Origin: Curvularia clavata | Lineage: Eukaryota | Assembly (NCBI GenBank): GCA_023920165.1 | Contig: CP089280.1 | Span: forward strand, 2,666,001-2,730,000 | Direction: 5' to 3' | Length of the DNA stretch: 64,000 nucleotides | Part shown: in pieces, positions 45,001 to 64,000 of the stretch | Layout: each line of letters begins with the position of its first letter | How positions within the stretch are numbered: the first letter of the stretch is position 1 | Notes under the pieces: model-generated | The model's input: the letters and a program-made list of their open reading frames with translations, nothing else | Database searches by the model: none | What the model was told of the DNA's origin: nothing | Position numbers and translations under genes: made by a program

Positions 45001-45790
45001 CGTGGTGCCTTCTTTCAAGGTTATCACCAAATCGTGCGGGCCATGCTCAGCAAGGCACTTGGCATCCTCTTCCGAGGCCAAATCCGCAAAGTCCTCGTAC
45101 TGTGGTGGCAACTGAGGCAACTTGGCTTGATCAGGGCCAACCTGGGCGTTCTTGGGCTTCTCCAACCCCTCCCAGTCCTCTTCCTCGTCGCTTGGGTCCC
45201 AACCCATCACAGTGGACACTTTGAGCGCGTAAACGTCCGTCGTGGGCGTTCGGAGTGTTTTCTCAAACTCTTCGGCGCTTTCTGTCGCGATTTTCTCATA
45301 TGAAGCCCTATCTACATATTTCACGCCCCTAAATAGCACTCGACGCGACCGGAGGCTTATTTTGGGCTTGTAGAAGTCGACCCAGGGCATACCTAAGCAT
45401 ACTGGGTAATGCTTCATTTCTGTCACCACAAAAGGTATATTCTGGACTTTAGTCCTCCCTCTTGTGTCTGTGACTTTCATGGTCACCTCTGTAGTGCCAT
45501 AAATCTCAAACTCCGCGCCGCTTAAGGCTTCTGCCACTAAGTTCGGTATAGGAGTTATTGTTAAATCGTGATCCTTGGCTTGGTGGATTGAGAGTAGATT
45601 TAGTTGAGACCCTCCATCTATCAGCGCTTCGAGTGGATCTTGGCCAATTTGCACCGTTATGGTCAATAGTGGGCTAGGTTTGCTGAACATTGCTTCGCGA
45701 AGTGTCTTCAAGTCCTCTTCTAGCTCTAGCCTTGCAATATGGGCGGAGAGTAGGGCTACTAGGTTCTCCGCCCCTTGCCTTTTTCCAGTT
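42058..45790 (-). CDS. pol: Gypsy pol (protease, RT, RNase H, integrase, chromodomain), probably via a -1 frameshift from gag
   Basis: ALIDGGS, YLDD, VDAS, HHCC zinc finger, MDFI..SDRG..TER, YLVKWTGYPDSENTWEP. The pol frame overlaps the gag end in the -1 frame at GGAAAAAG. Confidence 0.95.
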
Positions 45791-46991: not shown

Positions 46992-47232
46992 CTCGTAGGT
47001 GTACTTGAGGAGAGCGATTCGAATGTTAGACTGTTAGTGGCGTGAAGGTACAGCACGAGATAGATGAGAGAGAACTATGCTTTAACAGCCATGTATTCAC
47101 GAGACGAATCGCTATCGAGCACCTCTAGCGATCGTGGAGGCTTTATAGCCTTAGGTAAGCCCTAGCTGACTAACTAGCGTGAAGAAGGAGGGAATTGGAC
47201 CGGCATGTCCCAATTTGGACCAGGTCCTGACA

Positions 47233-47315
47233 TAAGCTAGTCAGCTAATCTACAGTATCTGGGTGCGTACTTCTATACCCAGAATCAACTTAGTCTATAG
47301 TCGATCTGTCAAGAC
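47233..47315 (+). repeat. Fragment of a Copia LTR (same family as 49273), the target of the hAT insertion; it resumes at 63985-64000
   Basis: Reverse complement of the LTR end (taagctagtcagc...gtcaagac|tataatcg), with one mismatch. Confidence 0.93.
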
Positions 47316-47344
47316 TAGACTGGTAAATGGGTATGGGGCACCCG

Positions 47345-47575
47345 GCTCGGGTTGGGGTAGGGCTTGGGGCTATAGAGACTCGGGCTGGGGTAGGGCTGGG
47401 GCTGCTAAGAGTCGGGCTGGGGTAGGGCTGGGGCTGCTAAGAGTCGGGCTGGGGTAGGGCTAGGGCTGCTAAGAGTCGGGCTGGGGCAGGGCTGGGTTGC
47501 TTGGCACTTGGGCTGGGGTAGGGCTGGGTTACTAAAGAGTTAGGTAGGGGTAGGGCTGGGTATAGCCTGCCCAGC
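47345..47575 (+). repeat. hAT left subterminal G-rich tandem repeats (~32-bp unit gggctggggtagggctggggctgctaagagtc)
   Basis: Visible tandem array; related repeats occur at 63710-63970. Confidence 0.9.
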
Positions 47576-47699
47576 TAGATTACAAATAACTTTAGGCTAG
47601 AAAAGATTCGAATTTATTATAGTTTATTATTATAGTAGCTTTAAAAAGAACTTTAAGATAAAACTAATAGGATTTATTACAGTTGACTATTACGGTAGC

Positions 47700-49272
47700 G
47701 CGCAGGGCAGACACGCTTTCGTGGAGGAAGTGGTAACTCGTCCTCTACCTTATCCACTTCCTCTAGAGATTCTTCTATATCCTGACTCTGATATTAACTC
47801 CTACACTCCTCTATATCTGCTGGGAGCTTAAACAAATTACTAATATTATTAGAAAGTTGGATAGCTTTCTCTATAGGCTCGTCTAAGTCTCTATTAAGAC
47901 TCTCTATTTTATTAGAATTTGCAAATTTAAGAATTATAAGTTGTTGAATTTTTTTAGTAGAAAGCTAATGTCGACGATTGCTAATAACTTCTTTAGTAAT
48001 ACTAAAGACTCTCTCTACACTTATTTACGCAATTGGTATAGCTAGAATATCTTTTATAACTTGGGTAAGATAGGGGTATATAATCTTACTTGCTTTCTAT
48101 CACTCTAAGATATTAATATATTTCCATAAATTAATACTAGAGCTGGTTAGATATAGCTCTCTTTTTTAATAAGTTGGCCCTCTACTCTTTTTAATTTTCT
48201 AGCTTGAAGAATCTTAGTTTAAAAGAGAAATCTGGTTTGATTGTAATTGAAGTAAAGTAGGCCTTCAAAACTATTCTATGCTTAATACTCTCTAAGGAAA
48301 TAAGCTTAGTATTAACTATATAATTTCTTAATTATTATATTAAGCTAGATAATTAAGAAACTACTACTAGTAGATATACTTATCTTAAAACTCCTATATC
48401 TTATTCTATATCTTCTATTAGTATCTATCTGTAATAAATATCTGTAATAATACCTTGTAAGCTATAAGCTTTTACATTAGATCAAGAATCATCACGCAGT
48501 TGAATAAGAAGCCACGCTCTTTATCAGTTTTCGAGTAGTATTTACTCAACTTTACCCTCCCTTTCGCCGCCACAGCTCTCACCACTTATAGCCAGTTGCT
48601 ATTCTCTAAGTCTTCTCCTAAATCAACCTCCATCTAATTAAGAAAATTAAAAAGCTAATTATACATAAGCCAGATATATAGTATTTGAGGTTTTCGACTC
48701 TGACTTAGAGACATTATTGCAGTCTTAAAATGGCTAAGCATTTCAGTAACCATCTCAAGATACGACCATTCTTGTGCAGATAGTCGTAGTCTCTTAAGAT
48801 CCCAAGAATTAATATCAGTATTATTATCGGCCTCTGAGAGATTTTCAGTATGGATAGGAACCCTTAACGCGATCTCATCTTTAAGCCATTCATCGATATA
48901 TTGCCGAAGCTTAACTACGCGCTCACACATATTATATGTCGAGTTCCATCATATTCTAACATCACAGATAACACTAAGACGTTTTTTTAGTAGTAGATCC
49001 CGTTATATTGCGAGAAACCGTTCGTATCGCTAAAGAGATAAGTCAACTATAATACAGATTGCTCTAATCTATATTGTAGTTAGTATGTGATAAATAACTA
49101 TAATAAAAAATTCTTCTCTTGCGAAGTGAATTAGGGACTAAGATATTGGCATCTACTTCATTAATCTGTTATCTCTACAAATCTTATATATTATCTAACT
49201 CAGTAGAAGCTAATAGCCTTAAGTACTAGATAATATCCTAGACAACGAGGTTGATAATATAGGCTAAGTAGA
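47700..49272 (-). pseudogene. hAT transposase, C-terminal part (RIP-degraded)
   Basis: LAYIINLVV (decayed CxxH region), VR..WNSTYNMCERVVKLR, and the dimerisation motif YPYLTQVIKDILAIPIA.ISVERVFS..NRRH.LS. Confidence 0.9.
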
Positions 49273-49634
49273 TGTTGAAGTAATAGGTGGCTGCTAGTAC
49301 TACTAGTAGTAGACTTAGACAGCCTGATCGAGAGACTCTAGATAGACGAGAGATTGCTAGGGGAGAGAGTTAATAGATACAATTGATTTTGTATAAACTG
49401 CTCTGGTTTTTATCTACTAGCTATTCTACTACTATATATATTGGCTGGAGTAGATTCTAGAAGAATCTATCTAGTAGTAGCTTGCGTAATCTTTGGCGTC
49501 ATAGACAGATGTCTATAGATCGATTATAGTCTTGACAGATCGACTATAGACTAAGTTGATTCTGGGTATAGGAGTACGCACCCAGATACTGTAGATTAGC
49601 TGACTAGCTTAGATCTACAACACGCCCCCTTAAG

Positions 49635-51428
49635 CTAGGAAGCTGTAATTTGGGATATATCTACTAGATTTGCTCCAAGTAGAAAGTCTCGAGTCTTGTC
49701 GGCGCTTGTAGCCTTAGTGAGACTGTCGGCTAGTAGACAGCTAGTGTTTTGATATACTAGCTGGATCTGTTTGGTCTCTACCTTCTCACGGATAAAGTAG
49801 TATTGGATATCGATGTGTTTTGTCCTAGCGTGATAGGTAGGATTTTTGGTGAGTTGGATTGCACTTTGGCTGTCTGAGTAGACAGTAGTAGCTGTCTTGT
49901 CTATGTCTGGCAGTATTGGATATAGAGCTTTAATCTCTTTGATAAACTGGGTGAGATATAAGCTCTGTTTAACTGCTTCTCGGTAGGCCATGAATTCAGC
50001 TTCTGCGCTTGATAGTGCTACTGTCGGCTGTAGTTTTGACAGCCAAGAAATCGCGCAGTTGCTCTTGTTTGACTGGAGTAAAAATATGTATCCAGTGGTA
50101 GATCTTCTACTGTCAAAGTCACCCCCCCAATCTGCATCCGTAGATCCAATCAGTTTAATCAGATCTAAGTTATTTGGTGCAGATTGACTGCTTTTGATGC
50201 TGTTTTGGTTATCAGTACTGAGCTGATAGAGTAGTCCTAGCTGTCTTGACTGAGCTAGATATCCCCATAGGTAGTCTAGACTGCTGAAATGCTCGGTGCT
50301 CGGATTGGCCATGAATCTGGATAGAAGATTGACTGCGTAGGTAATATCCGGCCGAGTAAAAATGGATAGATAGATGAGAGAGCCAATTTGCTGCTGGTAC
50401 ATATTGGTGGCGTTTGGAGTAGCCGTTTGGCTGTTTCTGTTGAGCTTGATATTCTGTTGCAGTGGAGTCTGTCTTGGCTTAATATCTTGCTTATTGAATC
50501 TAGCAAGTAGCCTTTGTAGATAGTTTTCTTGGGTAATATAGATCGCTCGTCTAGATCTAATTACTTGGACTCCAAGAAACTCTGAGACGTCGCCTAGATC
50601 TTTGATCTCAAGCTTTGAGATAGCTGTTAGGTCTTTGAATAGCTTTTGAATACTTTGCTCTTGTTCTCCAAAAATAAGCAAGTCGTCTACGTGAGTAGCT
50701 ATAACAAGCTTCTGCTCGACATTGATATAAGTGGCAGTGTCAATAAACAGAGATTTGAAGCCTAGTTGTCCGAGTAGGCTTGCTAGTAGTTTCTGCCACT
50801 GTCTACTGGCTTGTTTTAGCCCGTATAGAGCCTTGTTAAGCAAGCAGACGTGCTGTGGATAGTGCTGATCTTGAAATCCTTCTGGCTGCTCGACGTATAT
50901 AGTCGTGTCGATTAAAGCATTTGGGAAAGCTTGCTTGACATCCCAGCTTTTTATATGCCAGTTTTGAGCTGCTGAAATGGCTAGTAGTAGCCGGATTAGA
51001 TCAGGCCGAGTAGTATTGGCAAATGTCTCGTAGTAGTTGACTCCAAGCTCTTGTTGAAAGCCTTTCGCTACCCAACGTGCTTTGAATATAAAATCGCCAT
51101 TTTGCTGGTATTTTTTGTTAAGTACCCAGCGGCCTTTGAGAACTGGATATTCGGACGGTCTTGGTACAAGCTTCCAAGTGTCGTTCTTTTGCAGCTGGTC
51201 TAGCTCGTTTTGCATAGCTAATAGATAGTGTTGACTGTCTTGGTGCTGTAGCACTTGAGCGTAGCTTTTTGGATCAGTGATATCCTTTGAAGTAAATAAG
51301 ACTTCTTCTAGGATAATGTCCTCTGCTGCTATTTCTGGTGGAGCTTTTTGATTAGTGGATAGAGCTAATTCTGCTGGCTTGGCTTTCTTTTTGATCAAAA
51401 CAATCGGATTTCTTCCAACTACTCTCAT
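49635..51428 (-). CDS. Copia RT-RNase H (copy 1)
   Basis: KARWVAKGF, WDVKQAF, LYGLKQAS, HVDD, TDADW, SSAEAE, KHIDIQY. Confidence 0.93.
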   Translation of the reverse strand: MRVVGRNPIVLIKKKAKPAELALSTNQKAPPEIAAEDIILEEVLFTSKDITDPKSYAQVLQHQDSQHYLLAMQNELDQLQKNDTWKLVPRPSEYPVLKGRWVLNKKYQQNGDFIFKARWVAKGFQQELGVNYYETFANTTRPDLIRLLLAISAAQNWHIKSWDVKQAFPNALIDTTIYVEQPEGFQDQHYPQHVCLLNKALYGLKQASRQWQKLLASLLGQLGFKSLFIDTATYINVEQKLVIATHVDDLLIFGEQEQSIQKLFKDLTAISKLEIKDLGDVSEFLGVQVIRSRRAIYITQENYLQRLLARFNKQDIKPRQTPLQQNIKLNRNSQTATPNATNMYQQQIGSLIYLSIFTRPDITYAVNLLSRFMANPSTEHFSSLDYLWGYLAQSRQLGLLYQLSTDNQNSIKSSQSAPNNLDLIKLIGSTDADWGGDFDSRRSTTGYIFLLQSNKSNCAISWLSKLQPTVALSSAEAEFMAYREAVKQSLYLTQFIKEIKALYPILPDIDKTATTVYSDSQSAIQLTKNPTYHARTKHIDIQYYFIREKVETKQIQLVYQNTSCLLADSLTKATSADKTRDFLLGANLVDISQITAS

Positions 51429-51456
51429 GGAGTTGGCTGGTGGATTTGACTGGCTA

Positions 51457-51540
51457 GTATTTGGCTCAGTATTTGGCTCAGTATTTGGCTCAGTATTTGG
51501 CTCAGTATTTGGCTCAGCATTTGGCTCAGTATTTGGCTCT
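51457..51540. repeat. 12-bp tandem repeat (gtatttggctca x7) encoding an EPNT linker; also at 56396-56479
   Basis: Directly visible. Confidence 0.9.
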
Positions 51541-51569
51541 TCGTCAAGCTGCAGTTCTTCATCAGGAGC

Positions 51570-53830
51570 TTAATCATTGAACACTCCTTCTAGTATTTGG
51601 ACGTCTCTTGCAGTAGTAACCTTGTTAGTTCTAATATCGATTAGACGATATAGATTTTTACTAATATATCCAACAAGGTAGTACTGCTGGACACGAGAAT
51701 CTAGTTTGCCAAGAAACTCTTTTGGCTCTTTCTTGTATGCTAGAGATCCCCAGATTCTAACATTGCTGACGTCTGGTTTATATCCATATTTGGCTTCAAA
51801 TGGCGTCTTAAAGCCAATAGAGCTGTGCGGTGTTCTATTGTATAGATACACTGCCGCTAGTAGAGCTTCTGCCCACAGCTTATTAGGCATTTTGGCTTCA
51901 AATAGCAGAGCTCTTATCTTGTCAAATAACGTTCGGTTGATCCGCTCGGCTCCGCCTTTGCCTTCTGGATTGAATGGGGAGTTGAAAAAATCGGAGTTTA
52001 AATCCCTTTCTAGTAGCTAGCTTTTGCAGCTCTAGCGTGTCCAACTCATTGTCTGATTGGATAGCTTTGATCTGCTTTGAGTCTTGGACTTCTGCTTTCT
52101 TAACAAAAGCTTTGACTGGCTTGACTAGCTCTGATCTAGACGTGAGTAAGTCCACTTCTAGATATTTGGTGTAGTAGTCTAGAAAGGTAATATAATACCG
52201 ATAGCCCTTATTCGTCTTTGGCTTAATCGGCCCCCCTAGGTCGCAGTAGATCAAATCACCAAACTGGTGGACTGGTGTAGATATTGGATCTCTGCTTATT
52301 TTGCTAGCAAATTTGCTTCTCAAGCAAATCTCGCAGTTGCTAAATCCACTGCTGGTTTTGGTATTTGATTTGACGCCTTTGGTATTCTCACTTAGCTTAT
52401 TTAAGCTAGTTTTACCAATATGGCCAAAACGTCGGTGTAGAAGAGACGTTTGATCGTCTGGCTTAGACTGATCTGTTTGATTCGGTTGGACGGATTTGGC
52501 TGTCAGCTCTGTATTGTATGTCTCTGTATAGACTTGGCTAGTTTGGATATTGCTAACTGCAGTAAAAGTAGCAATATTTCTAGCGTATTGCCCCTTCGCT
52601 AGTATTTTGCTAGATAGCCTAATTAGGCTGCTAGTCTTTGAAAACTCGAATTCAGCTCCTTTTTGAACTGCTTGGTAGAGACTGAGTAGATTGACTTTGA
52701 AGTCCGGCACTAGTAAGACTTCTTTGAGTACTACTGTCTCGCCCGTACTCGTAAATTTAATTGGCACTTCGCCTTTGGCTGTTGCTTGTAGCAACGCAGT
52801 AGAGTTGCCCCATTTAATATACGTATTACTAACGCTGGTAAGGCTTCTAAAAAGCTGTCGGTCAGAGCAAATATGGGAGCTGGCGGCGCTGTCTAATATC
52901 CACTCAATCGACTTGGAAGACTCAGTGGATAGAGCAGCTTTGATATCGGCGATATTTGGATCGACTGAGACTACTGTAGATAGAGCTGTCTCAGGCTTAT
53001 AATATGTCCGACTGGGGCGTTTGCTGGGGTCTTTCTGCCAGCATTGGTCGACTAAATGTCCATTTCTCTTGCAGTGAGAGCAGTATTTTGGACTTTTGGT
53101 GGATTTTTGAGTAGCCAAAGTCATTTCGACGTCTTTTGACTGTGGAGCTTGGTTGGAGCTGCTAATTGGGCTCCTTTGGTATGGTCTGTAGCTCTTTTGG
53201 TAAGAGCTATTTGAGTTACTGCCGCTGCTGCTTCTAATCGATTTCTGGCGTCTTGATTCGTCCATAATTTGGTTGTATAAGTTCTCAAGATCAATCTCTT
53301 TGTTAGATCTAAAATCTTGAGTAATAGCTGTAACCAAATAGTCAAAGTCTGAGCTTAGATTATTGAGAATCAAAGCAGCAATGAATCGGTGCGGTAGTGC
53401 CAGATTTCGGCTCTCTAGACTAAGGACTAGTCTGTTGATTTTTTTGGAGATATATTTCGACGTTGTTTTGGCACTGCTGCACGGTCGTATTGATAAGATC
53501 TTTGCAAATTAAGAAGTCAGAGCTAAAGCCTTTTGGGCTATATAGCTTCTTTAGGTGATTCCATAGACTATATGGAGTTTTCATGTCTTTTGACTGTAGT
53601 AGAGGCCCATCGTCTAGACTGAGTCGTAGAGTAGACAGAGCTTTGATTTCTGAGCTTTTTAGCTTCTGATATCTCTCAGAGCCTTTACTTTGTTCAAGCT
53701 CTTGTGGGTCGACTGTTATAATCTCGTAGCAGTCTTGCTGTATAAGCACTGCTTCGATCCGTAGTGCCCACATGTCATAGTTAGAGCTGCCTTTGAGCTT
53801 TGGCACTCTAAATATGCTACTGTCAGCCAT
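51570..53830 (-). pseudogene. Copia gag-protease-integrase (copy 1), two frameshifts relative to copy 2
   Basis: Matches 56509-58764 except for indels at ~51975-51990 and ~53440 (homopolymers). Confidence 0.85.
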
Positions 53831-54573
53831 TTTGTGCTGCTAGTCTGTCTAGAAATATAGACTAGATAGCTGTTTGTAGTCTAGCGCAGTAAATAAGCAG
53901 TTACTGTTCTTACTATGAAGAACTCTGGCTGCTAGTCGATCGAGTTGATCTGTCTGCAACTAGCTACAAGAAGCTTCGGCTAACCCCTAACCAGAGTATT
54001 TAGCTGCGTTTGCGGCTCAGAGACTCCTAAACTGATAGGGTTTTTGCTTCAGTAGAGTTTCTCAGCTTTTTAGCCGTGGTTTACTCTTAACCCTTAGTAA
54101 CCCTAGCTTTTACTAAGAGACTAGCTATATTTATACTAGCTCTTACTTTAGTCTTATGCTAAGACTTGCTAGAATCTTCGATCGATAGACACGTAATCCG
54201 GGCTCATAACCTGTTGAAGTAATAGGTGGCTGCTAGTACTACTAGTAGTAGACTTAGACAGCCTGATCGAGAGACTCTAGATAGACGAGAGATTGCTAGG
54301 GGAGAGAGTTAATAGATACAATTGATTTTGTATAAACTGCTCTGGTTTTTATCTACTAGCTATTCTACTACTATATATATTGGCTGGAGTAGATTCTAGA
54401 AGAATCTATCTAGTAGTAGCTTGCGTAATCTTTGGCGTCATAGACAGATGTCTATAGATCGATTATAGTCTTGACAGATCGACTATAGACTAAGTTGATT
54501 CTGGGTATAGGAGTACGCACCCAGATACTGTAGATTAGCTGACTAGCTTAGATCTACAACACGCCCCCTTAAG

Positions 54574-56367
54574 CTAGGAAGCTGTAATTTGGGATATATC
54601 TACTAGATTTGCTCCAAGTAGAAAGTCTCGAGTCTTGTCGGCGCTTGTAGCCTTAGTGAGACTGTCGGCTAGTAGACAGCTAGTGTTTTGATATACTAGC
54701 TGGATCTGTTTGGTCTCTACCTTCTCACGGATAAAGTAGTATTGGATATCGATGTGTTTTGTCCTAGCGTGATAGGTAGGATTTTTGGTGAGTTGGATTG
54801 CACTTTGGCTGTCTGAGTAGACAGTAGTAGCTGTCTTGTCTATGTCTGGCAGTATTGGATATAGAGCTTTAATCTCTTTGATAAACTGGGTGAGATATAA
54901 GCTCTGTTTAACTGCTTCTCGGTAGGCCATGAATTCAGCTTCTGCGCTTGATAGTGCTACTGTCGGCTGTAGTTTTGACAGCCAAGAAATCGCGCAGTTG
55001 CTCTTGTTTGACTGGAGTAAAAATATGTATCCAGTGGTAGATCTTCTACTGTCAAAGTCACCCCCCCAATCTGCATCCGTAGATCCAATCAGTTTAATCA
55101 GATCTAAGTTATTTGGTGCAGATTGACTGCTTTTGATGCTGTTTTGGTTATCAGTACTGAGCTGATAGAGTAGTCCTAGCTGTCTTGACTGAGCTAGATA
55201 TCCCCATAGGTAGTCTAGACTGCTGAAATGCTCGGTGCTCGGATTGGCCATGAATCTGGATAGAAGATTGACTGCGTAGGTAATATCCGGCCGAGTAAAA
55301 ATGGATAGATAGATGAGAGAGCCAATTTGCTGCTGGTACATATTGGTGGCGTTTGGAGTAGCCGTTTGGCTGTTTCTGTTGAGCTTGATATTCTGTTGCA
55401 GTGGAGTCTGTCTTGGCTTAATATCTTGCTTATTGAATCTAGCAAGTAGCCTTTGTAGATAGTTTTCTTGGGTAATATAGATCGCTCGTCTAGATCTAAT
55501 TACTTGGACTCCAAGAAACTCTGAGACGTCGCCTAGATCTTTGATCTCAAGCTTTGAGATAGCTGTTAGGTCTTTGAATAGCTTTTGAATACTTTGCTCT
55601 TGTTCTCCAAAAATAAGCAAGTCGTCTACGTGAGTAGCTATAACAAGCTTCTGCTCGACATTGATATAAGTGGCAGTGTCAATAAACAGAGATTTGAAGC
55701 CTAGTTGTCCGAGTAGGCTTGCTAGTAGTTTCTGCCACTGTCTACTGGCTTGTTTTAGCCCGTATAGAGCCTTGTTAAGCAAGCAGACGTGCTGTGGATA
55801 GTGCTGATCTTGAAATCCTTCTGGCTGCTCGACGTATATAGTCGTGTCGATTAAAGCATTTGGGAAAGCTTGCTTGACATCCCAGCTTTTTATATGCCAG
55901 TTTTGAGCTGCTGAAATGGCTAGTAGTAGCCGGATTAGATCAGGCCGAGTAGTATTGGCAAATGTCTCGTAGTAGTTGACTCCAAGCTCTTGTTGAAAGC
56001 CTTTCGCTACCCAACGTGCTTTGAATATAAAATCGCCATTTTGCTGGTATTTTTTGTTAAGTACCCAGCGGCCTTTGAGAACTGGATATTCGGACGGTCT
56101 TGGTACAAGCTTCCAAGTGTCGTTCTTTTGCAGCTGGTCTAGCTCGTTTTGCATAGCTAATAGATAGTGTTGACTGTCTTGGTGCTGTAGCACTTGAGCG
56201 TAGCTTTTTGGATCAGTGATATCCTTTGAAGTAAATAAGACTTCTTCTAGGATAATGTCCTCTGCTGCTATTTCTGGTGGAGCTTTTTGATTAGTGGATA
56301 GAGCTAATTCTGCTGGCTTGGCTTTCTTTTTGATCAAAACAATCGGATTTCTTCCAACTACTCTCAT
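54574..56367 (-). CDS. Copia RT-RNase H (copy 2)
   Basis: Same protein as copy 1. Confidence 0.93.
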   Translation of the reverse strand: MRVVGRNPIVLIKKKAKPAELALSTNQKAPPEIAAEDIILEEVLFTSKDITDPKSYAQVLQHQDSQHYLLAMQNELDQLQKNDTWKLVPRPSEYPVLKGRWVLNKKYQQNGDFIFKARWVAKGFQQELGVNYYETFANTTRPDLIRLLLAISAAQNWHIKSWDVKQAFPNALIDTTIYVEQPEGFQDQHYPQHVCLLNKALYGLKQASRQWQKLLASLLGQLGFKSLFIDTATYINVEQKLVIATHVDDLLIFGEQEQSIQKLFKDLTAISKLEIKDLGDVSEFLGVQVIRSRRAIYITQENYLQRLLARFNKQDIKPRQTPLQQNIKLNRNSQTATPNATNMYQQQIGSLIYLSIFTRPDITYAVNLLSRFMANPSTEHFSSLDYLWGYLAQSRQLGLLYQLSTDNQNSIKSSQSAPNNLDLIKLIGSTDADWGGDFDSRRSTTGYIFLLQSNKSNCAISWLSKLQPTVALSSAEAEFMAYREAVKQSLYLTQFIKEIKALYPILPDIDKTATTVYSDSQSAIQLTKNPTYHARTKHIDIQYYFIREKVETKQIQLVYQNTSCLLADSLTKATSADKTRDFLLGANLVDISQITAS

Positions 56368-56508
56368 GGAGTTGGCTGGTGGATTTGACTGGCTAGTATT
56401 TGGCTCAGTATTTGGCTCAGTATTTGGCTCAGTATTTGGCTCAGTATTTGGCTCAGCATTTGGCTCAGTATTTGGCTCTTCGTCAAGCTGCAGTTCTTCA
56501 TCAGGAGC

Positions 56509-58764
56509 TTAATCATTGAACACTCCTTCTAGTATTTGGACGTCTCTTGCAGTAGTAACCTTGTTAGTTCTAATATCGATTAGACGATATAGATTTTTAC
56601 TAATATATCCAACAAGGTAGTACTGCTGGACACGAGAATCTAGTTTGCCAAGAAACTCTTTTGGCTCTTTCTTGTATGCTAGAGATCCCCAGATTCTAAC
56701 ATTGCTGACGTCTGGTTTATATCCATATTTGGCTTCAAATGGCGTCTTAAAGCCAATAGAGCTGTGCGGTGTTCTATTGTATAGATACACTGCCGCTAGT
56801 AGAGCTTCTGCCCACAGCTTATTAGGCATTTTGGCTTCAAATAGCAGAGCTCTTATCTTGTCAAATAACGTTCGGTTGATCCGCTCGGCTCCGCCTTTGC
56901 CTTCTGGATTGAATGGGGGAGTAAATCGGAGTTTAAATCCCTTTCTAGTAGCTAGCTTTTGCAGCTCTAGCGTGTCCAACTCATTGTCTGATTGGATAGC
57001 TTTGATCTGCTTTGAGTCTTGGACTTCTGCTTTCTTAACAAAAGCTTTGACTGGCTTGACTAGCTCTGATCTAGACGTGAGTAAGTCCACTTCTAGATAT
57101 TTGGTGTAGTAGTCTAGAAAGGTAATATAATACCGATAGCCCTTATTCGTCTTTGGCTTAATCGGCCCCCCTAGGTCGCAGTAGATCAAATCACCAAACT
57201 GGTGGACTGGTGTAGATATTGGATCTCTGCTTATTTTGCTAGCAAATTTGCTTCTCAAGCAAATCTCGCAGTTGCTAAATCCACTGCTGGTTTTGGTATT
57301 TGATTTGACGCCTTTGGTATTCTCACTTAGCTTATTTAAGCTAGTTTTACCAATATGGCCAAAACGTCGGTGTAGAAGAGACGTTTGATCGTCTGGCTTA
57401 GACTGATCTGTTTGATTCGGTTGGACGGATTTGGCTGTCAGCTCTGTATTGTATGTCTCTGTATAGACTTGGCTAGTTTGGATATTGCTAACTGCAGTAA
57501 AAGTAGCAATATTTCTAGCGTATTGCCCCTTCGCTAGTATTTTGCTAGATAGCCTAATTAGGCTGCTAGTCTTTGAAAACTCGAATTCAGCTCCTTTTTG
57601 AACTGCTTGGTAGAGACTGAGTAGATTGACTTTGAAGTCCGGCACTAGTAAGACTTCTTTGAGTACTACTGTCTCGCCCGTACTCGTAAATTTAATTGGC
57701 ACTTCGCCTTTGGCTGTTGCTTGTAGCAACGCAGTAGAGTTGCCCCATTTAATATACGTATTACTAACGCTGGTAAGGCTTCTAAAAAGCTGTCGGTCAG
57801 AGCAAATATGGGAGCTGGCGGCGCTGTCTAATATCCACTCAATCGACTTGGAAGACTCAGTGGATAGAGCAGCTTTGATATCGGCGATATTTGGATCGAC
57901 TGAGACTACTGTAGATAGAGCTGTCTCAGGCTTATAATATGTCCGACTGGGGCGTTTGCTGGGGTCTTTCTGCCAGCATTGGTCGACTAAATGTCCATTT
58001 CTCTTGCAGTGAGAGCAGTATTTTGGACTTTTGGTGGATTTTTGAGTAGCCAAAGTCATTTCGACGTCTTTTGACTGTGGAGCTTGGTTGGAGCTGCTAA
58101 TTGGGCTCCTTTGGTATGGTCTGTAGCTCTTTTGGTAAGAGCTATTTGAGTTACTGCCGCTGCTGCTTCTAATCGATTTCTGGCGTCTTGATTCGTCCAT
58201 AATTTGGTTGTATAAGTTCTCAAGATCAATCTCTTTGTTAGATCTAAAATCTTGAGTAATAGCTGTAACCAAATAGTCAAAGTCTGAGCTTAGATTATTG
58301 AGAATCAAAGCAGCAATGAATCGGTGCGGTAGTGCCAGATTTCGGCTCTCTAGACTAAGGACTAGTCTGTTGATTTTTTGGAGATATATTTCGACGTTGT
58401 TTTGGCACTGCTGCACGGTCGTATTGATAAGATCTTTGCAAATTAAGAAGTCAGAGCTAAAGCCTTTTGGGCTATATAGCTTCTTTAGGTGATTCCATAG
58501 ACTATATGGAGTTTTCATGTCTTTTGACTGTAGTAGAGGCCCATCGTCTAGACTGAGTCGTAGAGTAGACAGAGCTTTGATTTCTGAGCTTTTTAGCTTC
58601 TGATATCTCTCAGAGCCTTTACTTTGTTCAAGCTCTTGTGGGTCGACTGTTATAATCTCGTAGCAGTCTTGCTGTATAAGCACTGCTTCGATCCGTAGTG
58701 CCCACATGTCATAGTTAGAGCTGCCTTTGAGCTTTGGCACTCTAAATATGCTACTGTCAGCCAT
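56509..58764 (-). CDS. Copia gag-protease-integrase (copy 2)
   Basis: CSHCKRNGHLVDQC knuckle, WILDSAAS protease, HRRFGH..CEIC, YCDL..QSDN..AER integrase. Confidence 0.93.
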   Translation of the reverse strand: MADSSIFRVPKLKGSSNYDMWALRIEAVLIQQDCYEIITVDPQELEQSKGSERYQKLKSSEIKALSTLRLSLDDGPLLQSKDMKTPYSLWNHLKKLYSPKGFSSDFLICKDLINTTVQQCQNNVEIYLQKINRLVLSLESRNLALPHRFIAALILNNLSSDFDYLVTAITQDFRSNKEIDLENLYNQIMDESRRQKSIRSSSGSNSNSSYQKSYRPYQRSPISSSNQAPQSKDVEMTLATQKSTKSPKYCSHCKRNGHLVDQCWQKDPSKRPSRTYYKPETALSTVVSVDPNIADIKAALSTESSKSIEWILDSAASSHICSDRQLFRSLTSVSNTYIKWGNSTALLQATAKGEVPIKFTSTGETVVLKEVLLVPDFKVNLLSLYQAVQKGAEFEFSKTSSLIRLSSKILAKGQYARNIATFTAVSNIQTSQVYTETYNTELTAKSVQPNQTDQSKPDDQTSLLHRRFGHIGKTSLNKLSENTKGVKSNTKTSSGFSNCEICLRSKFASKISRDPISTPVHQFGDLIYCDLGGPIKPKTNKGYRYYITFLDYYTKYLEVDLLTSRSELVKPVKAFVKKAEVQDSKQIKAIQSDNELDTLELQKLATRKGFKLRFTPPFNPEGKGGAERINRTLFDKIRALLFEAKMPNKLWAEALLAAVYLYNRTPHSSIGFKTPFEAKYGYKPDVSNVRIWGSLAYKKEPKEFLGKLDSRVQQYYLVGYISKNLYRLIDIRTNKVTTARDVQILEGVFND

Positions 58765-59495
58765 TTTGTGCTGCTAGTCTGTCTAGAAATATAGACTAGA
58801 TAGCTGTTTGTAGTCTAGCGCAGTAAATAAGCAGTTACTGTTCTTACTATGAAGAACTCTGGCTGCTAGTCGATCGAGTTGATCTGTCTGCAACTAGCTA
58901 CAAGAAGCTTCGGCTAACCCCTAACCAGAGTATTTAGCTGCGTTTGCGGCTCAGAGACTCCTAAACTGATAGGGTTTTTGCTTCAGTAGAGTTTCTCAGC
59001 TTTTTAGCCGTGGTTTACTCTTAACCCTTAGTAACCCTAGCTTTTACTAAGAGACTAGCTATATTTATACTAGCTCTTACTTTAGTCTTATGCTAAGACT
59101 TGCTAGAATCTTCGATCGATAGACACGTAATCCGGGCTCATAACCTGTTGAAGTAATAGGTGGCTGCTAGTACTACTAGTAGTAGACTTAGACAGCCTGA
59201 TCGAGAGACTCTAGATAGACGAGAGATTGCTAGGGGAGAGAGTTAATAGATACAATTGATTTTGTATAAACTGCTCTGGTTTTTATCTACTAGCTATTCT
59301 ACTACTATATATATTGGCTGGAGTAGATTCTAGAAGAATCTATCTAGTAGTAGCTTGCGTAATCTTTGGCGTCATAGACAGATGTCTATAGATCGATTAT
59401 AGTCTTGACAGATCGACTATAGACTAAGTTGATTCTGGGTATAGGAGTACGCACCCAGATACTGTAGATTAGCTGACTAGCTTAGATCTACAACA

Positions 59496-60560
59496 GTAGA
59501 GAATAGTATTTTTACTTAGACTCCAGCTTATACCAAGTTATTATAGACCTTACTGAAGAGACTATATAAGAGTGCTATTATTACTAGCATTATTACAAGT
59601 AATAGATAGCAGTTTTTTTTAGAGTTCACTCCTAGAAAGAAGTTTCAGAACTTCATCTGCTATTAAAGCTCTAGTATGTCTCCCACAGATCGGTATAAAA
59701 TCCAAAAGCTTTTCTTTAAGTTACCATTAAGTATTAATATAGTAACCTTTGATTACAAGAAAACTAAGATAGTTACTTAAAGCCTAACTATCTAATGCAA
59801 GTGATATTTTTATTTCTTAGCCAAGATCATTAAAAAGCTCAGCTAAAGCCTTCTCAAATTGTAACTCAAACGCTAGCTTAAATTTATAACGGCTAATAAT
59901 CACAGCGTTAGGCTAGAGAAACTAGAGAAATCGTTAAAATGATAGCCGCTCAAATGTTCGGAAGCTCCAGTAGTTATCAACTACTACTCTTACTAGTTCT
60001 TATTCATATATCTCAGTTAAGTAGGCTAGTATTACGCGAGGATTAATATTTATTAGCGGTAAGATACTTTAGCAGAGTGAGTTCAATAGCTTATTGTGTA
60101 TAGGCGAAGAGATAAGCTAGCAAGTCTAGGTTTGACGATGTCTATAAAGATGCTTTATACCAATATTTCCAGCTGATAGGTGCGCGAGTATATAACTGCA
60201 GTTCGAGCAGAAGATATATAGACAGCCAGTTAGGACCTCTACAGCCTCTCCAAAGTTTGCCCAGATTTGGCTCGTACGACAAGAAGAGCCCCAGTATAGA
60301 ACTGGCTTCGAAGGATCTCAGGCCCATAGTATTTTATTCTACCACTCCTTCCAGTTTGAAATAATCGCTTTATTCTCTTTATTACTATTATTTTTAAGTA
60401 CTAGATACTAGACGAGTATAAGTATAACTTTAAAACCACCTTTATCTCAGTATAGAGCATTCATCTTAAAATGCGTAAGGATATCTAGCAGTTCTATAGA
60501 AGGCTCAGCCATTATAAAGATTATACCTATAATAAATAACTATAATAAATCAAAGTTACT
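59496..60560 (-). pseudogene. hAT transposase, N-terminal part (BED finger plus catalytic start), RIP-degraded
   Basis: TSQIWANF..IFCSNCSYILAH..GIKHLYRH, KISLALD, GRHT, LLSITC.NASNN. The frame continues across the Copia TSD into the C-terminal part. Confidence 0.88.
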
Positions 60561-60779
60561 AGATAGACAAATATCATCTGTAGAAAACTAGATATAATAG
60601 GAAGTTCTAAGTCCTCTAGCTTCTAGCATAGCTAAGATTGTCTAAAACACTAGTGTTGTTTAACATATATCTAAAGTAGGTTTTATATAAGAGAAAGTTT
60701 AGATCAATACAGGGGTTATACTATAATTATTAGCTAGAATAAACCCTAGCATAATACTCTAAACTCTAACTACTAGAGT

Positions 60780-62006
60780 ATTATTAGAGATATACTTAGA
60801 CAGCCAGCACTACTTAGACTTCTCTTCTTCAGCCTCTTCATCTTAATCCTCAGCCTCCTCTACCTTAGTACTATCAGCCCCCTCTAGAGCCAAAAAGCTA
60901 TCGTCACTACTATAGCCATCCTCATCCTCGTCTATAATCTCATCCTCGTCATCAACCTCTTCTTCACACTCATTACTATTATAGCCCTCAATATATAGCT
61001 TATTATCCTCAAAACGCGTATCTAGATCAAACTAGTTAAAAATAAAAATAGACTCTTCTTATCTATACTAGTTAGTCCTTAAATATAATAATAAACTATA
61101 ATAAACTTACTACTAGAAACTATCTATAGCAAGTTCTTTTTTCTTAGAAGAAAGATTCTCGCAAAACTTAAGCCACTCATCTCGTACTTACTCGCTCTCA
61201 AAGGCGTTATTATTTAGCTTAGCCAATCCTCAAAGATATTCTTTGCGTATAAGTAAGTCAACAACCCCCTTTCGACCATAGAAACGAGCAGAAACGCGTA
61301 ACCCCTTAGTAGAGGTATCAGACGAGGCGTCGCTAGAGGTAGTCTAGAGAATAAGCTAATGCCGTCTTTTGTCGATCTCATTCTAGATCTTAGACCATTT
61401 CGCGTACACAGCTTAGAAAGCAAACGCCATCCAATTAGCTAATAACTATTAGTAGATATCTATAATAAAAGACTATAATAACTTACCACTTCGCTTTTCT
61501 TTAAAGCGCTTAGATTTATACTCCTCAAGATAGCTCTTTATAATCCTATTCTTCTTATCCTCTCCGGCAGTCTTATACCATTCTTTCTCTTTAAGTAACT
61601 TAAGAAATTTCGCCCAAGCAGCGCAGTCAGCATCTTTAGCGCGTTGGAGAGCGGCTTCTTCCTCAGTACGTGACGCGGCGAGATCTCTCTATGCAATAGC
61701 TTGAGCTATATTACTAAGCTGACCTTGATATTAGACTCGCAGACTAGTTGGACAACCTTTTTAGAAACCTCCAGATCTATATTGCGCAATAATAAAATTA
61801 ATCTCATCTTACTCATTTTTAAAGCCCTACTAACGTTAGTATTTATTATAATAATAGACTAGAATTATTACTTTAGTAAGATCTACCCACTCCTACTTAG
61901 TAAAGTTCTTAGGTATTTGGGCAACGCGTGGAGGTGCTAGACCCTCAGATACGTCGCCATCAGCCTCTATTATAGACTCGCGCTTGATTTCTAGCGTACG
62001 CGGCAT
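60780..62006 (-). pseudogene. RIP-degraded multi-exon cargo gene with a strongly acidic C-terminal tract; unknown function
   Basis: ATG 62006 MPRTLEIKRES..; helical middle (..AAWAKFLKLLKEKEWYK..); tail ECEEEVDDEDEIIDEDEDGYSSDD..EEAED.DEEAEEE. GT-AG introns. 3' end is approximate. Confidence 0.65.
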
Positions 62007-62530
62007 TGTTAACTATAATAAAGTACTAATATAACGTCTAGTATAGTAAAAATAGGGAGAGAGAGGATGGTTACTAAGAGAGAGTAGGAAGTTTAGTAAT
62101 AGTCTACCTATTAAGGTAATTAGGGGTCCGTGCGCCCTAGATTTCGCGCTAGCGTTAGGCTAGCAAACAATATCTTTCATACAGCCAATATCTTAGATAA
62201 TAAAAGTTAGAGCGCTTTAATTTTAGTCTTATTTGAAAGCCCTAGAGTAGCTCTATCTAATAAGCCAGTTATCACAGTATTTAATCACTGCTTCGTTAAG
62301 TTATAGCGATTTCTTGCTAACTATCTTATAGACCCTTAGCAAGACCCTGGGTAATCCGTGTACTCACCTTCACCTTCACCTTCACCTACTCATATATCCC
62401 TAAAATTCTCAACTACTCTATAGCTAAGTATTTATCCACCAATCCTCTTAATCTAAATCTAACTTTCCCAGCCCAACGCCAAATTTCTCAACTCAACCCT
62501 ACTAGTTATCACAGAGATTTATCACGTACT

Positions 62531-63499
62531 ATGTTAGCAGTAGACGAGGTAGGGGGGCCAGACGATAAGTCGTTTGAGGAGATGGCAGAACGGTTAAATA
62601 TACTCCCGTCGCCTAAAAGACAGATATCTCAGCTGCTGTCACCTCGCAAATCAGAAGCTCTTAAAGACGAATTTGAGGTTTTAGGAGCTCAGATAACTAG
62701 CAATCCTACTTTTTCTACTAAAAGTAGCTAACCAAATCTATAAGTTTATCACAGTAATTTATCACAGAAAATAGCTAACAAATACTAGAACTACTACTTA
62801 CAATTATCCCTCCCCGCCCCATATCTCGACTAGTGGCTATCTTGCATCTTTTGCGTACGTTTATCACGGTAATTTATTACAAGTAATAGCTAACTAATAG
62901 TAGGACTGGCACTATATTCCATAGTATAGGTAGCAAAACCGCTCGTAAGCAGCCAGTCAATCATAGGCCGCCCACGCCTAAGCCCGACAATAAAAATCAA
63001 GAGTCGGAAAGCAGCAAAGAAGACAAGTCCGGCCCTCCTACACCGCCCAGTGCTCAACCATCTACGTCTGGCGCCTCTAAGAGGCGCAGGTTTAAGCCTA
63101 GCAGTAAGTTTATCACAGTTATTTATCACAGCAAGCGACTAATAATTACTAGCTATTACACTAAAAGAGATCAAAAGATTCCAGAAGTCTACTAATCTAC
63201 TCATTCCAAAGACTCGATTTATAAAACTTATTAAAAAGATTATAGAAGACGTATATCCGCAACACCCTCTACGTATCCAAAAAGAGACGTTGGAAGGTCT
63301 TCAAGAGGCTACTAAGTATTTCTTAGTTAGATTTCTTAAAGATATATTATATTATCACAGATATTAATCACAGCTACTAACAGATCTAGAATATAACATA
63401 AACGCTATCCATACTAAGAGAGTTACTATTCAGAAGAAGGATGGGGATCTTGTCAAGCACTATCTTAACAGGCTTGGCATAGGTGGTATTAAGTACTGA
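62531..63499 (+). pseudogene. Histone H3-like cargo gene (5 exons, RIP-damaged)
   Basis: Exons 62901-63103, 63153-63341 and 63390-63499 give ..GSKTARKQP..KRRRFKPSTITLKEIKRFQKSTNLLIPK..LRIQKETLEGLQEATKYFLVRFLKEYNINAIHTKRVTIQKKD, which aligns with the H3 histone fold. Two donors are mutated GT>AT. Confidence 0.9.
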
Positions 63500-63709
63500 G
63501 GGCTTTCATAATAGAGTATTAAGTACTAATAGCTTTTATAATTAAAAGATAGCCATAATTAAAAACTAGCTATATACTAGAAGTCAAATAAAAGTTTTAT
63601 AAGTTCTTAATTTTTAATTTACTACTATAATAATTATGCATAATAAGTCTTTAATATATACAGAGTATATATATATCTAATAACTAAGACCCAGCATAAC
63701 CTAGTACTA

Positions 63710-63970
63710 AGCAACCCAGCCCTACCCCAGCCCGCTTATTAAGCAACCCAGCCCTACCCCTACCCAACTCTTGACTAACCCAGCCCTGCCCCTACCCAAC
63801 TTAAATGCCAAGAGTTGGGTAGAAGCAGGGCTAGGTTGCCTAATAAGCGGGCTGGGGTAGGGCTAGGTTAGCCAAGAGTTGGGTAGGGGCAGGGCTGGGT
63901 TGCTTAGTCATCTAACCCAGCCCTACCCCTACCCAACTCTTAGCAGCCCTGCCCCAGCCCTGCCCCAGCC
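63710..63970. repeat. hAT right subterminal repeats (cccagccctacccc) in both orientations
   Basis: Reverse complements of the left array, with an internal inverted block at ~63810-63905. Confidence 0.9.
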
Positions 63971-64000
63971 CATTTACCAGTCTAGTCAAGACTATAATCG

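Follow-up and report, generated by a model that had tools for sequence, protein, structure and literature searches.

Histone H3-like genes inside hAT transposons have been described before. In Pyrenophora tritici-repentis (Ptr), Manning et al. (2013, G3, PMC3538342) reported a 5.6-kb element in which a transposase gene, a central ORF and a histone H3-like gene (H3L) follow each other in this order between terminal inverted repeats (TIRs); the 26 reference copies are nearly identical and open. hAT-borne H3 copies are also known from six Mycosphaerellaceae, Pseudocercospora fijiensis among them (Dhillon et al., 2019, Mob DNA, PMC6710886), where a 9.5-kb element whose target-site duplication (TSD) measures 8 bp carries one or two of them. 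According to that paper, these inserts are intronless H3 retrocopies, often of exon 3 only, the extra H3 copies are all RIP-inactivated and lie in AT-rich blocks, and its authors found no similarity between their hAT consensus sequences and the Ptr element. Setosphaeria turcica is among the 18 genomes of that study and is not listed there as a carrier of such a capture.

We analyzed a 64,000-nt stretch of Curvularia clavata DNA (contig CP089280.1, referred to as the window), in which a first-pass annotation made from the sequence alone had placed a histone gene inside a hAT element bounded by TIRs and a TSD. This framing holds. The window element has the marks of the superfamily, namely an 8-bp TSD, short TIRs and a hAT C-terminal dimerization domain, and like the Mycosphaerellaceae elements it is an 8-bp-TSD hAT that carries an H3-like sequence. 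Its left end matches the reverse complement of its right end at 16/16 nt. The frame of the element and the insertion nested in it consist of the following parts.

47316-63984: hAT element, bounded by 16-bp inverted ends and the 8-bp target duplication GTCAAGAC
47308..47315, no strand: left 8-bp hAT target-site duplication GTCAAGAC, identical to 63985-63992
47316..47331, + strand: left terminal inverted repeat TAGACTGGTAAATGGG
47332..47566, no strand: left subterminal repeats, G-rich, period 32 bp, made of GGGCTGGGGTAGGGCTGGGG units; inverted copies at the right end
49268-49272 and 59496-59500: 5-bp duplication GTAGA of the Copia pair
49273..59495, - strand: nested tandem Copia retrotransposon (LTR-internal-LTR-internal-LTR), which interrupts the transposase gene
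Starts at 49273, 54212 and 59146: Copia LTRs, 350 bp
63690..63968, no strand: right subterminal G-rich/C-rich repeats, partly palindromic
63969..63984, - strand: right terminal inverted repeat
63985..63992, no strand: right target-site duplication GTCAAGAC

Without the Copia pair the hAT measures 6.44 kb, similar in size to the Ptr element. The insertions form a nest of repeats, the hAT having been inserted in a Copia LTR fragment and the Copia pair in the hAT. An Rfam search gave nothing above the gathering score; the only matches were microRNA-like hairpins in the palindromic right subterminal repeats. The transposase and the central ORF are laid out as follows (the tandem motif is treated further below).

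47695..49267, - strand: hAT transposase, C-terminal two thirds, RIP-damaged, with many stops
About 47926-48123, - strand: hAT dimerization domain (Pfam PF05699)
Near 48431-48450 and 49087-49106, - strand: transposase introns with the tandem motif
59502..60509, - strand: hAT transposase, N-terminal part, RIP-damaged
Near 60529-60548, - strand: transposase intron with the tandem motif
60845..62007, - strand: central ORF with four exons and an acidic C-terminal tail; at least 12 in-frame stops in this copy
61827-61871, 61439-61486 and 61063-61110, - strand: central ORF introns

With stops read as X, the left arm of the window element matches PF05699 at E 7e-11 (42.2 bits against a cut-off of 21.4), and the intact relative L004, a metagenome contig, matches it at E 3.6e-18. 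In tblastn comparisons the C-terminal part of the window transposase is 42-50% identical to the L004 transposase exons, and the N-terminal part is 42% identical to L004 over 337 aa (E 1.7e-75). No Pfam match to the RNase-H-like core/DUF659 was found in the RIP-damaged window transposase; in L004 this region scores 18.6 bits for PF14372 and 14.6 bits for PF04937, both below the curated cut-offs. The window central ORF is homologous to those of three relatives (L003, L004 and L005), and no Pfam family was matched by either the window copy (with X at stops) or the intact L004 exons. Two candidate assignments for this ORF were rejected. An Atlas lead for an 'FF domain' (0.89, below the mark) was dropped because the Trp and Phe behind the lead are missing from the intact homologues in the alignment. 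An H4-like histone fold in exon 3, prompted by a GGV..Y.E stretch, is unsupported, since AlphaFold gives a weak model (pLDDT 62, pTM 0.59) and Foldseek gave no match at E <= 0.001 against the PDB.

H3L is a three-exon gene on the + strand with its coding part at 62914-63499.

62008..62913, + strand: divergent promoter and long H3L 5' leader
62269, 62506, 62746 and 62861, + strand: four intron-like leader units with the tandem motif
62914..63103, + strand: exon A, N-terminal tail; start codon ATA, which is ATG in relatives
63104..63152, + strand: intron 1, GTAAGT..TAG, 49 nt, with the tandem motif TTATCACAGTTATTTATCACAG
63153..63341, + strand: exon B (alpha-N, alpha-1, loop 1, alpha-2)
63342..63389, + strand: intron 2, 48 nt, now ATATAT..TAG, with the tandem motif; 5' splice site AT, not GT
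63390..63499, + strand: exon C (alpha-2 end, alpha-3, divergent C-terminus); stop TGA at 63497-63499

The model was built by homology to the best intact protein match, the annotated 162-aa protein SETTUDRAFT_99795 (P0003) of Exserohilum turcica, whose full length is covered by three window pieces in tblastn. Consistent with the spliced histone fold proposed in the first pass, the translation of 63146-63367 (exon B) matches Pfam PF00125 at E 1.3e-11, with 45.2 bits against a cut-off of 26.4; a word-indexed protein search with exon B gave no match. The beginning of the gene had been set at 62531. This is an ATG of the leader, where the 66-aa ORF at 62531-62728 has no Pfam match; by homology coding starts at 62914, and P0003 and another protein, P0242, begin with MFHS. 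Reading through intron 1 in P0242 yields the same 17 residues as in the window. The N-tail contains GSKTARKQ, as had been observed, and in both P0003 and the window it is without K4, K9, K27 and K36.

The Pyrenophora precedent cited in the first pass is real and probably belongs to the same element family, with matching gene order, H3L signature residues and positions of both introns. For the Ptr element this comparison covers gene order, H3L residues and introns (by eye), and the TIR and transposase comparisons cover L004, its near-identical counterpart L006, and L005. Table S10 of the Ptr paper gives an H3L with the FLVGYFEDCNINAIHAKRVTIQ.KD signature also seen in the window (..EDCN(I/L)NAIHAKRVTIQ.KD..), and its Figure S3 places two introns at the same codon positions and phases as in the window gene (PMC3538342). 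The main text uses the word 'intron' once, in a figure legend (PMC3538342). Ptr intron 1 carries gttatcacagtcgtttatcacag, the tandem TTATCACAG motif of the window, which in Ptr is found also some 50 nt upstream of the ATG, and in some Ptr isolates the H3L start codon was lost by ATG>ATA, as in the window (PMC3538342). There are differences as well. The host is another one, and the closest protein comes from Exserohilum turcica. The window tail lacks ARTKQTARK and has an acidic proline-rich stretch, whereas the published Ptr H3L keeps ARTK; loop 1 of the window is 2 residues longer; the window has the motif in intron 2, where the Ptr gene as published has none; the 5' leader of the window gene measures about 840 nt and contains four additional units with the motif; and the window copy is heavily RIP-mutated, unlike the open reference copies of Ptr (PMC3538342).

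Copies free of RIP damage, sought as had been suggested, include P0003, L004/L006 and contigs of two sequencing runs discussed below. Both metagenome contigs have open exons for H3L, the central ORF and the transposase, in the same order and orientation as the window; they are 99.9% alike, have flanking sequences distinct from one another's and from those in the window, and carry a TIR that is 15/16 identical to the window TIR. L004 H3L matches PF00125 with 95 bits, has no intron 1, and keeps K4, K9 and ARKS at K27. A third contig, L005, has the central ORF and no H3L, and ends within the transposase gene; this H3L-less sister element is possibly new. Neither P0003 nor the H3L alignment, used as queries, brought up further H3L members, the matches being mostly duplicated canonical H3.

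The relatives bear on where the histone gene belongs. A host H3 variant that came to lie between the hAT ends by chance, or was trapped there by nested insertions, would fit a region that is a nest of repeats, but we find this scarcely credible: in L004 and L006, which lie in different flanks, H3L again has the central ORF on one side and the right TIR on the other, the Ptr element has it at the same place in 26 copies (PMC3538342), and the DNA run X1 contains the whole stretch in many copies with differing mutations (386 contig pieces, with at most eight differing contigs at one place).

H3L could instead be a recent neutral transduplicate of the host H3, a functionless passenger that decays in every copy. 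The capture and possible drift proposed by Manning et al. (PMC3538342) would fit this, as would the hAT-borne H3 copies of Mycosphaerellaceae, all of them RIP-killed retrocopies (PMC6710886). The window copy is dead, and since L005 is without H3L, the gene would be dispensable. We nevertheless regard a neutral passenger as improbable. H3L is open in P0003, L004/L006 and Ptr, though the transposases differ at about half of their residues (L004 and L005 exons are 45-54% identical); between P0003 and L004 the H3L fold is 59% identical. Intron 2 has one and the same position and phase in the H3L of three lineages (window, Ptr and L004), and the window gene, unlike the Mycosphaerellaceae inserts (PMC6710886), has introns, its own promoter region and intact relatives. 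In a histone tree of 100 histone-fold rows, with Ptr H3L left out, the phylogenetic check suggested in the first pass joined the window H3L with P0003, P0257, P0261, P0266 and P0058 in one set (SH-aLRT 97), and canonical H3 fell outside. Derived residues are common to the H3L-like proteins, and an alignment of four of them has 55 invariant columns. Identity between the Pleosporales-type fold and canonical H3 is no more than 44% for the window and 54% for P0003, too low for a recent copy.

We consider it very probable that the window contains a three-gene hAT of the Ptr kind, in a copy inactivated by RIP and interrupted by Copia, and that H3L is an old, constrained accessory gene of this family. 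We infer a single uptake, from canonical H3, in an ancestor of the hAT family, and judging from the sequences the gene would since have been kept under constraint as an accessory dispensable for transposition.

A divergent tail, a longer loop 1 and the loss of Q68, F84 and T107 are marks of CenH3. The first-pass annotation had drawn attention to these features, and they are present: the N-tail of the window H3L is divergent, both the window and P0003 have two more residues in loop 1 than H3 does, and Q68, F84 and T107 are all replaced in the window, a likeness to CenH3/CENP-A/Cse4. A transposon-carried variant or mimic of the CenH3 type is very unlikely all the same, and the likeness does not extend to kinship. 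P0003's 60 listed PDB matches are all canonical H3 (best E 8.1e-27), with no CENP-A or Cse4 among them, and its Atlas look-alikes are generic H3 clusters. The traits are not family-wide, since loop 1 has normal length and F84 is kept in L004 H3L, P0261 and Ptr H3L. In the main text of Manning et al. H3L falls outside both the H3 and the CenH3 group, and the legend of their Figure S4 derives its fold from canonical H3 (PMC3538342).

The RIP damage recognized in the first pass is borne out by the right arm of the element, where TpA/ApT is 1.55 and (CpA+TpG)/(ApC+GpT) is 0.75, compared with 0.64-0.92 and 1.16-1.32 in two genic stretches; CpA is found 241 times and TpG 81 times. The window H3L equals P0003 at 105 of 161 aligned residues. 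Of the 56 differences, G>A by itself accounts for 32 and G>A together with C>T for 6; the remaining 18 require other changes, and as these are not of the RIP type, P0003 is a cousin and not the progenitor. The ATG->ATA change of the start codon and the GT->AT change of intron 2 are G>A changes of the RIP type. With no start codon, no 5' splice site at intron 2 and roughly one residue in three different from P0003, mostly through G>A transitions, the window copy is dead and unable to make H3L protein.

One way for the proposed histone to fail would have been that all copies decay with no intact, expressed version. The copies do not show this pattern: P0003 and L004/L006 are intact, and an un-RIPped copy is found in contigs of runs X13 and X14, which are RNA by guess only, with no RNA run among the holders listed, and come from the same organism as the best-matching DNA run. 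These contigs cover 62069/62074-63650 without gaps and differ from the window by A>G, T>C and a single A>C only. Such changes cannot create stops, so all three H3L exons are open in them; the A>C at 63391, seen in 4/4 runs, gives back the Asp of the relatives. All three central-ORF introns (3/3) are skipped in these contigs with GT..AG ends, and no such joints are listed for the DNA runs X1 and X3. For H3L no splice joints are listed in the X13/X14 contigs, which retain the two coding introns as well as the four units of the leader. The H3L region is therefore unspliced there and gives no support for a translatable H3L mRNA.

The product of an intact copy is predicted to pair with H4. For P0003, used in place of the dead window copy, modeling with an animal H4 (cut from P0012) gave an ipSAE of 0.80, and the best control reached 0.01; at least 88% of the contacts are common to the runs, and partner pLDDT is 69 or higher. 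The ipSAE mark is reached by 51/78 solved complexes and 2/108 mismatched pairs. The pass may be owed to likeness to solved nucleosomes, or to the model's memory of them. For the variant or decoy proposed in the first pass, which might alter silencing or targeting, this predicted complex is the functional evidence. On these models, H3L from an intact copy would pair with H4 and enter nucleosomes. A tentative further step is that the changed alpha-3 and C-terminus, together with the tail of the window lineage that is without K4, K9, K27 and K36, might give chromatin that escapes or dilutes silencing based on the H3 tail; we think this possible, with the balance against it. Since the tail without these lysines is confined to the P0003/window lineage, an anti-silencing role for the whole family cannot rest on it.

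A hAT that carries H3L has been known since 2013, and the window copy, being dead, would alone be an ordinary annotation. The family picture adds that H3L, central ORF and transposase stay together and open across a deep divergence that spans Pyrenophora, an Exserohilum relative and metagenome fungi. This makes an old question testable, whether a transposon can gain from its own histone, and the family supplies intact elements to clone, a natural control without H3L (the L005 type) and a candidate cis-element.

The candidate cis-element is a unit of 13 nt, mostly tandem, whose core is TTATCACAG; no sequence of the hAT family, exons included, is better conserved. The window has 12 sites in the hAT and none in the other 47 kb. 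The unit occurs directly after the 5' splice site in introns of each of the three genes. It also lies 35-60 nt upstream of the start codon in both accessory genes, which are transcribed divergently, in both subterminal regions with copies pointing inward, and, in L004, as a 5-unit 13-bp array 3' of H3L. Two RIP-mutated copies mark the subterminal regions of the window element.

47614..47633, + strand: left subterminal motif copy, RIP-mutated to TTATTATAG..TTATTAT, which matches left subterminal + sites of L004
63626..63647, - strand: right subterminal motif remnant, RIP-mutated, 3' of H3L, with the L004 array in the matching place

A literature search for TTATCACAG with 'intron' gave no related title among the matches listed, and the conserved tandem motif is possibly new. 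A bolder reading, which we rate as doubtful, sees in the hAT family a multi-gene element under common regulation instead of a transposase that happens to carry a passenger, its motif bound by an element-encoded factor and its H3L acting against heterochromatin. Candidate binders would be the DNA-binding part of the transposase or the central-ORF protein, which is conserved and has an RGRP AT-hook-like stretch and an acidic tail. Such a factor might couple transposition, splicing or transcription to the supply of the element's H3 variant; the acidic-tailed partner might then hand on H3L, and H3L-H4 nucleosomes might keep the element out of H3K9/K27-based heterochromatin.

The motif-bearing introns are 45-49 nt long and predicted to be unstructured (z -0.3 to +1.3). 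Introner-like elements are said to be longer and more structured than ordinary introns, as van der Burgt et al. reportedly found in 2012. The introns of the hAT share features with those of Dothideomycetes, where introns of different genes have a near-identical core and presence varies by lineage (Collemare et al., 2015, PMC4457414), as for H3L intron 1, which is absent in L004. They differ from introner-like elements in being short and predicted unstructured, in being limited to one transposon in the 64-kb window, and in that the motif core is also found outside introns, upstream of the starts and in the subterminal regions.

AT-rich repeat DNA makes up the right end of the window, where the first-pass annotation had placed a TIR/TSD-bounded hAT transposon. 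These bounds were confirmed by an 8-bp duplication, GTCAAGAC, on both sides of the element, by identical left and right terminal 16 nt, and by a match to the hAT dimerisation domain PF05699 (E 7e-11, stops read as X) in the left arm on the minus strand. The transposase gene is split by a tandem Copia pair, without which the hAT measures 6441 bp, and both subterminal regions are filled with G-rich repeats with a period of 32 bp. The element and its histone H3-like gene (H3L) comprise the following features.

47316-63984, hAT transposon (8-bp duplication, identical ends)
49273-59495, tandem Copia pair, LTR-internal-LTR-internal-LTR with three 350-bp LTRs (5-bp duplication GTAGA)
60845-62007, minus strand, central ORF between transposase and H3L; four exons, long acidic tail, at least 12 stops
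62914-63103, plus strand, H3L exon A (frames, homologue)
63104-63152, plus strand, H3L intron 1 (frames, homologue)
63153-63341, plus strand, H3L exon B (frames, homologue)
63342-63389, plus strand, H3L intron 2 (frames, homologue, read difference)
63390-63499, plus strand, H3L exon C (frames, homologue)

Reading frames, comparison with a homologue and a single informative mismatch among the aligned reads define the H3L gene model. The translation of positions 63146-63367 matched Pfam Histone PF00125 (E 1.3e-11, 45.2 bits, cut-off 26.4), which bears out the histone fold claimed inside the hAT. When exon B was used as the query of an exhaustive HMMER search against 1.84 billion representative proteins, 705 were matched at E <= 0.001. 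The strongest relative with a single domain was P0003 (E 1.7e-16, 64% identity), a 162-aa protein annotated in Exserohilum turcica Et28A as 'uncharacterized protein SETTUDRAFT_99795', and its full length was matched on the window in three pieces by tblastn. The residues singled out earlier are also present: GSKTARKQ was found, loop 1 is that of H3 plus two residues, and Q68, F84 and T107 are all replaced. The gene start had been put at 62531, but this is a leader ATG; by homology the start is at 62914, where the codon is now ATA.

The damage attributed to RIP is evident from the dinucleotide indices. The right arm has a TpA/ApT of 1.55 and a (CpA+TpG)/(ApC+GpT) of 0.75, compared with 0.64-0.92 and 1.16-1.32 in two genic stretches, and CpA outnumbers TpG 241 to 81, indicating G>A on the plus strand. 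H3L shares 105 of 161 aligned residues with P0003; among the 56 differences, 32 are accounted for by G>A alone and 6 by G>A with C>T, while 18 need other changes, so that P0003 is a cousin rather than the source of the window gene. All three H3L exons are free of stops, which is no sign of selection on this copy because on the coding strand G>A can turn only Trp codons into stops. The gene has lost its start codon and intron 2 its GT, and this copy of the hAT and its H3L is dead.

The precedent in Pyrenophora tritici-repentis (Ptr) turned out to be the same kind of element. The Ptr element, which has a transposase, a central ORF and H3L, is described in 26 nearly identical copies, for which ESTs exist (Manning et al., 2013; PMC3538342). 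As given in Table S10 of that work, the Ptr H3L protein contains FLVGYFEDCNINAIHAKRVTIQEKDS, a signature common to P0261 (Paraphoma), P0257, P0266, P0003 and the window. In Figure S3, intron 1 interrupts the Thr codon that follows KAG, and intron 2 splits the Asp codon of FED behind its first base, the same places and phases as in the window. The ATG>ATA change also occurs in copies of two other Ptr isolates. On these sequence likenesses the window element is judged to be of an already known kind, the Pyrenophora type. The H3-carrying hATs of Mycosphaerellaceae are a different case, being described as 9.5-kb elements with intronless H3 retrocopies, all RIP-killed, and with hAT sequences unlike the Ptr element (Dhillon et al., 2019; PMC6710886); Setosphaeria turcica is within that genome set and is not reported as an H3-capture carrier.

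A metagenome scan with the intron motif described below yielded 15 loci, among them the un-RIPped copies that the first-pass annotation had proposed to look for. L004 and L006 (99.9% alike across 5992 bp) are elements of about 6.3 kb with the gene order of the window and a left TIR matching at 15 of 16 positions, in which the transposase exons (PF05699, E 3.6e-18), the central ORF and a 145-aa H3L (PF00125, E 5.1e-27) are all open. No matching 8-bp flanks were found at the two ends of L004, and it is therefore not proven to be one complete insertion. The L004 H3L begins MARTKQKASKS and in the fold shares 71% identity with canonical H3 and 59% with P0003; it has intron 2 at the shared place and no intron 1. 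The window (63104-63152), the E. turcica-type copy (read-through ORF P0242) and the Ptr figure all show intron 1, which L004/L006 lack (L004 5436-5918); this reflects either gain or loss of an intron that itself belongs to the motif family of the element. The central ORF of a further locus, L003, has one stop. L005 has transposase and central ORF, then a TIR (15/16) about 400 bp past the central-ORF start (L005 3440-4097), and no H3-like sequence was matched in it at E <= 0.001. With its homologous transposase and central ORF, L005 is a sister element without H3L, so that H3L either joined the family later than the central ORF or was lost in L005.

The P0003 fold matched 156 proteins, of which 105 had at least 75 matched positions; after removal of 5 duplicates, 100 distinct rows entered a quick IQ-TREE analysis (LG+G4, 93 columns), with Ptr H3L left out. 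The window, P0003, P0257, P0261, P0266 and P0058 formed one set (SH-aLRT 97), and most other forks are unsupported with 93 columns only. All 60 listed PDB matches of P0003 were canonical H3 (best E 8.1e-27). The P0003/window lineage keeps GGKAPRKQ in its tail and has no counterpart of K4, K9, K27 or K36; more of the H3 tail is kept in L004 H3L and in the published Ptr sequence. Common to the family are T107C, a missing Q68 and an alpha-3/C-terminus that has been rebuilt.

The best-conserved sequence in the hAT family is a 13-nt unit, repeated in tandem, whose core reads TTATCACAG. The pattern TTATYAYRR-N(2-5)-TWATYAY has 12 sites in the window, all within the hAT, against an expected 0.02 from 100 shuffles, none of which reached 12.

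Motif sites in the window and in two relatives
Window: 47614, 48431, 49087, 60529, 61085, 61462, 62269, 62506, 62746, 62861, 63110, 63352
L004: 566, 661, 1436, 2102, 4012, 4959, 5357, 6025
L005: 2763, 3505, 3771

Of the window sites, the H3L coding introns hold two, and two more fall in central-ORF introns that are removed in runs X13/X14; four are in the H3L leader, one in the left subterminal region and three in gaps in transposase homology, which we read as introns. The motif stands directly behind the 5' splice site in all three genes. The un-RIPped relatives have its core intact, as does the Ptr sequence shown in Figure S3 (PMC3538342), where the motif is visible in H3L intron 1 and upstream of the ATG. 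In L004 it occurs 35-60 nt upstream of the start codons of both accessory genes (H3L and central ORF) and points inward in both subterminal regions, and a 5-unit 13-bp array lies 3' of H3L. Over 22 nt, window H3L intron 1 and one of the central-ORF introns of L005 are 100% identical, against about 64-75% likeness between their exons. On the opposite strand the unit includes TGATAA, a GATA-factor core. No mention of the motif was found among the papers listed by a full-text search or in the main text of Manning et al. A longer array of the 13-nt unit, GGTTTATCACAGT, was seen on an unrelated metagenome contig (L007, 1235-1308), in which neither a hAT transposase (E <= 0.001) nor a TIR-like end was detected.

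From the best DNA run, X1 (coded organism A), 386 contig pieces were aligned; their transition patterns are of many kinds and indicate several differently RIP-mutated copies. Runs X13 and X14 carry the species label of X1 and are RNA by guess only. Their contigs over 62069-63337, 63343-63650 and 62074-63650 differ from the window by 90, 25 and 117 letters with no gaps; summed over all aligned pieces of the two runs, A>G accounts for 124 and 159 differences and T>C for 31 and 46, and there is one A>C. The contigs omit 61439-61486, whose CT..AC ends are GT..AG on the minus strand, and 61061-61117 with 9 replaced letters, which we read as a 48-nt intron (61063-61110) plus RIP-diverged flanks; a jump from 61826 to 61872 appears as a loose end matching central-ORF exon 1. 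No intron-skipping joints of the central ORF are listed in DNA runs X1 and X3. Taken together, these observations make it very probable that an un-RIPped copy is transcribed and its central ORF spliced in the putative RNA runs. No H3L splice joints are listed in the X13/X14 contigs, which keep all H3L introns. Across 62069-63650 the H3L region is unspliced over six motif-bearing units, although the three central-ORF introns are spliced out in the same runs; retained introns, an antisense or precursor RNA, or carried-over DNA could each account for this.

In ESMFold2 the P0003 fold (residues 55-162) with animal H4 (P0012 residues 193-275) gave an ipSAE of 0.80 against 0.01 for the best control, a mark reached by 51 of 78 solved complexes and 2 of 108 mismatched pairs, with contact agreement between runs of at least 88% and partner pLDDT of at least 69. 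H3-H4 complexes have been solved many times over, and the prediction therefore speaks for likeness rather than binding. The H3-H3' contact is formed by the alpha-3/C-terminal part of the histone. From the predicted H4 fit, the tail, T107C, the Q68 loss and the rebuilt alpha-3/C-terminus we infer that H3L enters nucleosomes and may build a tetramer of a distinct type; that it counters silencing is a guess. The central ORF, transcribed divergently from H3L, is kept in four lineages, with homologues at L004 3617-5129, in L003 and at L005 2784-3588; identity is 35-46% for exon 2 and 38-49% for exon 3. Its RGRPTN stretch resembles an AT-hook. Neither the window copy nor the L004 exons matched a Pfam family, and its weak, all-helical model had no structural match. 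The earlier observation is correct, and the family-level evidence argues against the view of H3L as a neutral passenger.

Several minor observations concern the ends and surroundings of the element. The palindromic subterminal repeats (63770-63966) gave many Rfam microRNA-family matches, all far below the gathering score; these are hairpins by construction and do not speak for an RNA gene. The two internal parts of the Copia pair are identical over the compared stretches, and their long open frames (644 and 754 aa) contrast with the heavily RIP-mutated hAT around them. The hAT is inserted within a Copia LTR fragment (47233-47317 and 63985-64000), 85 nt of which are 99% complementary to the nested Copia LTRs, so that this flank looks un-RIPped: either RIP spared it, or an already RIP-mutated hAT copy moved in afterwards in trans. 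The ends and TSD of the hAT in this flank are perfect. Directly left of the LTR fragment, a 424-aa open frame (45759-47033, minus strand) is gag-like with a CCHC zinc knuckle and comes from another retroelement.
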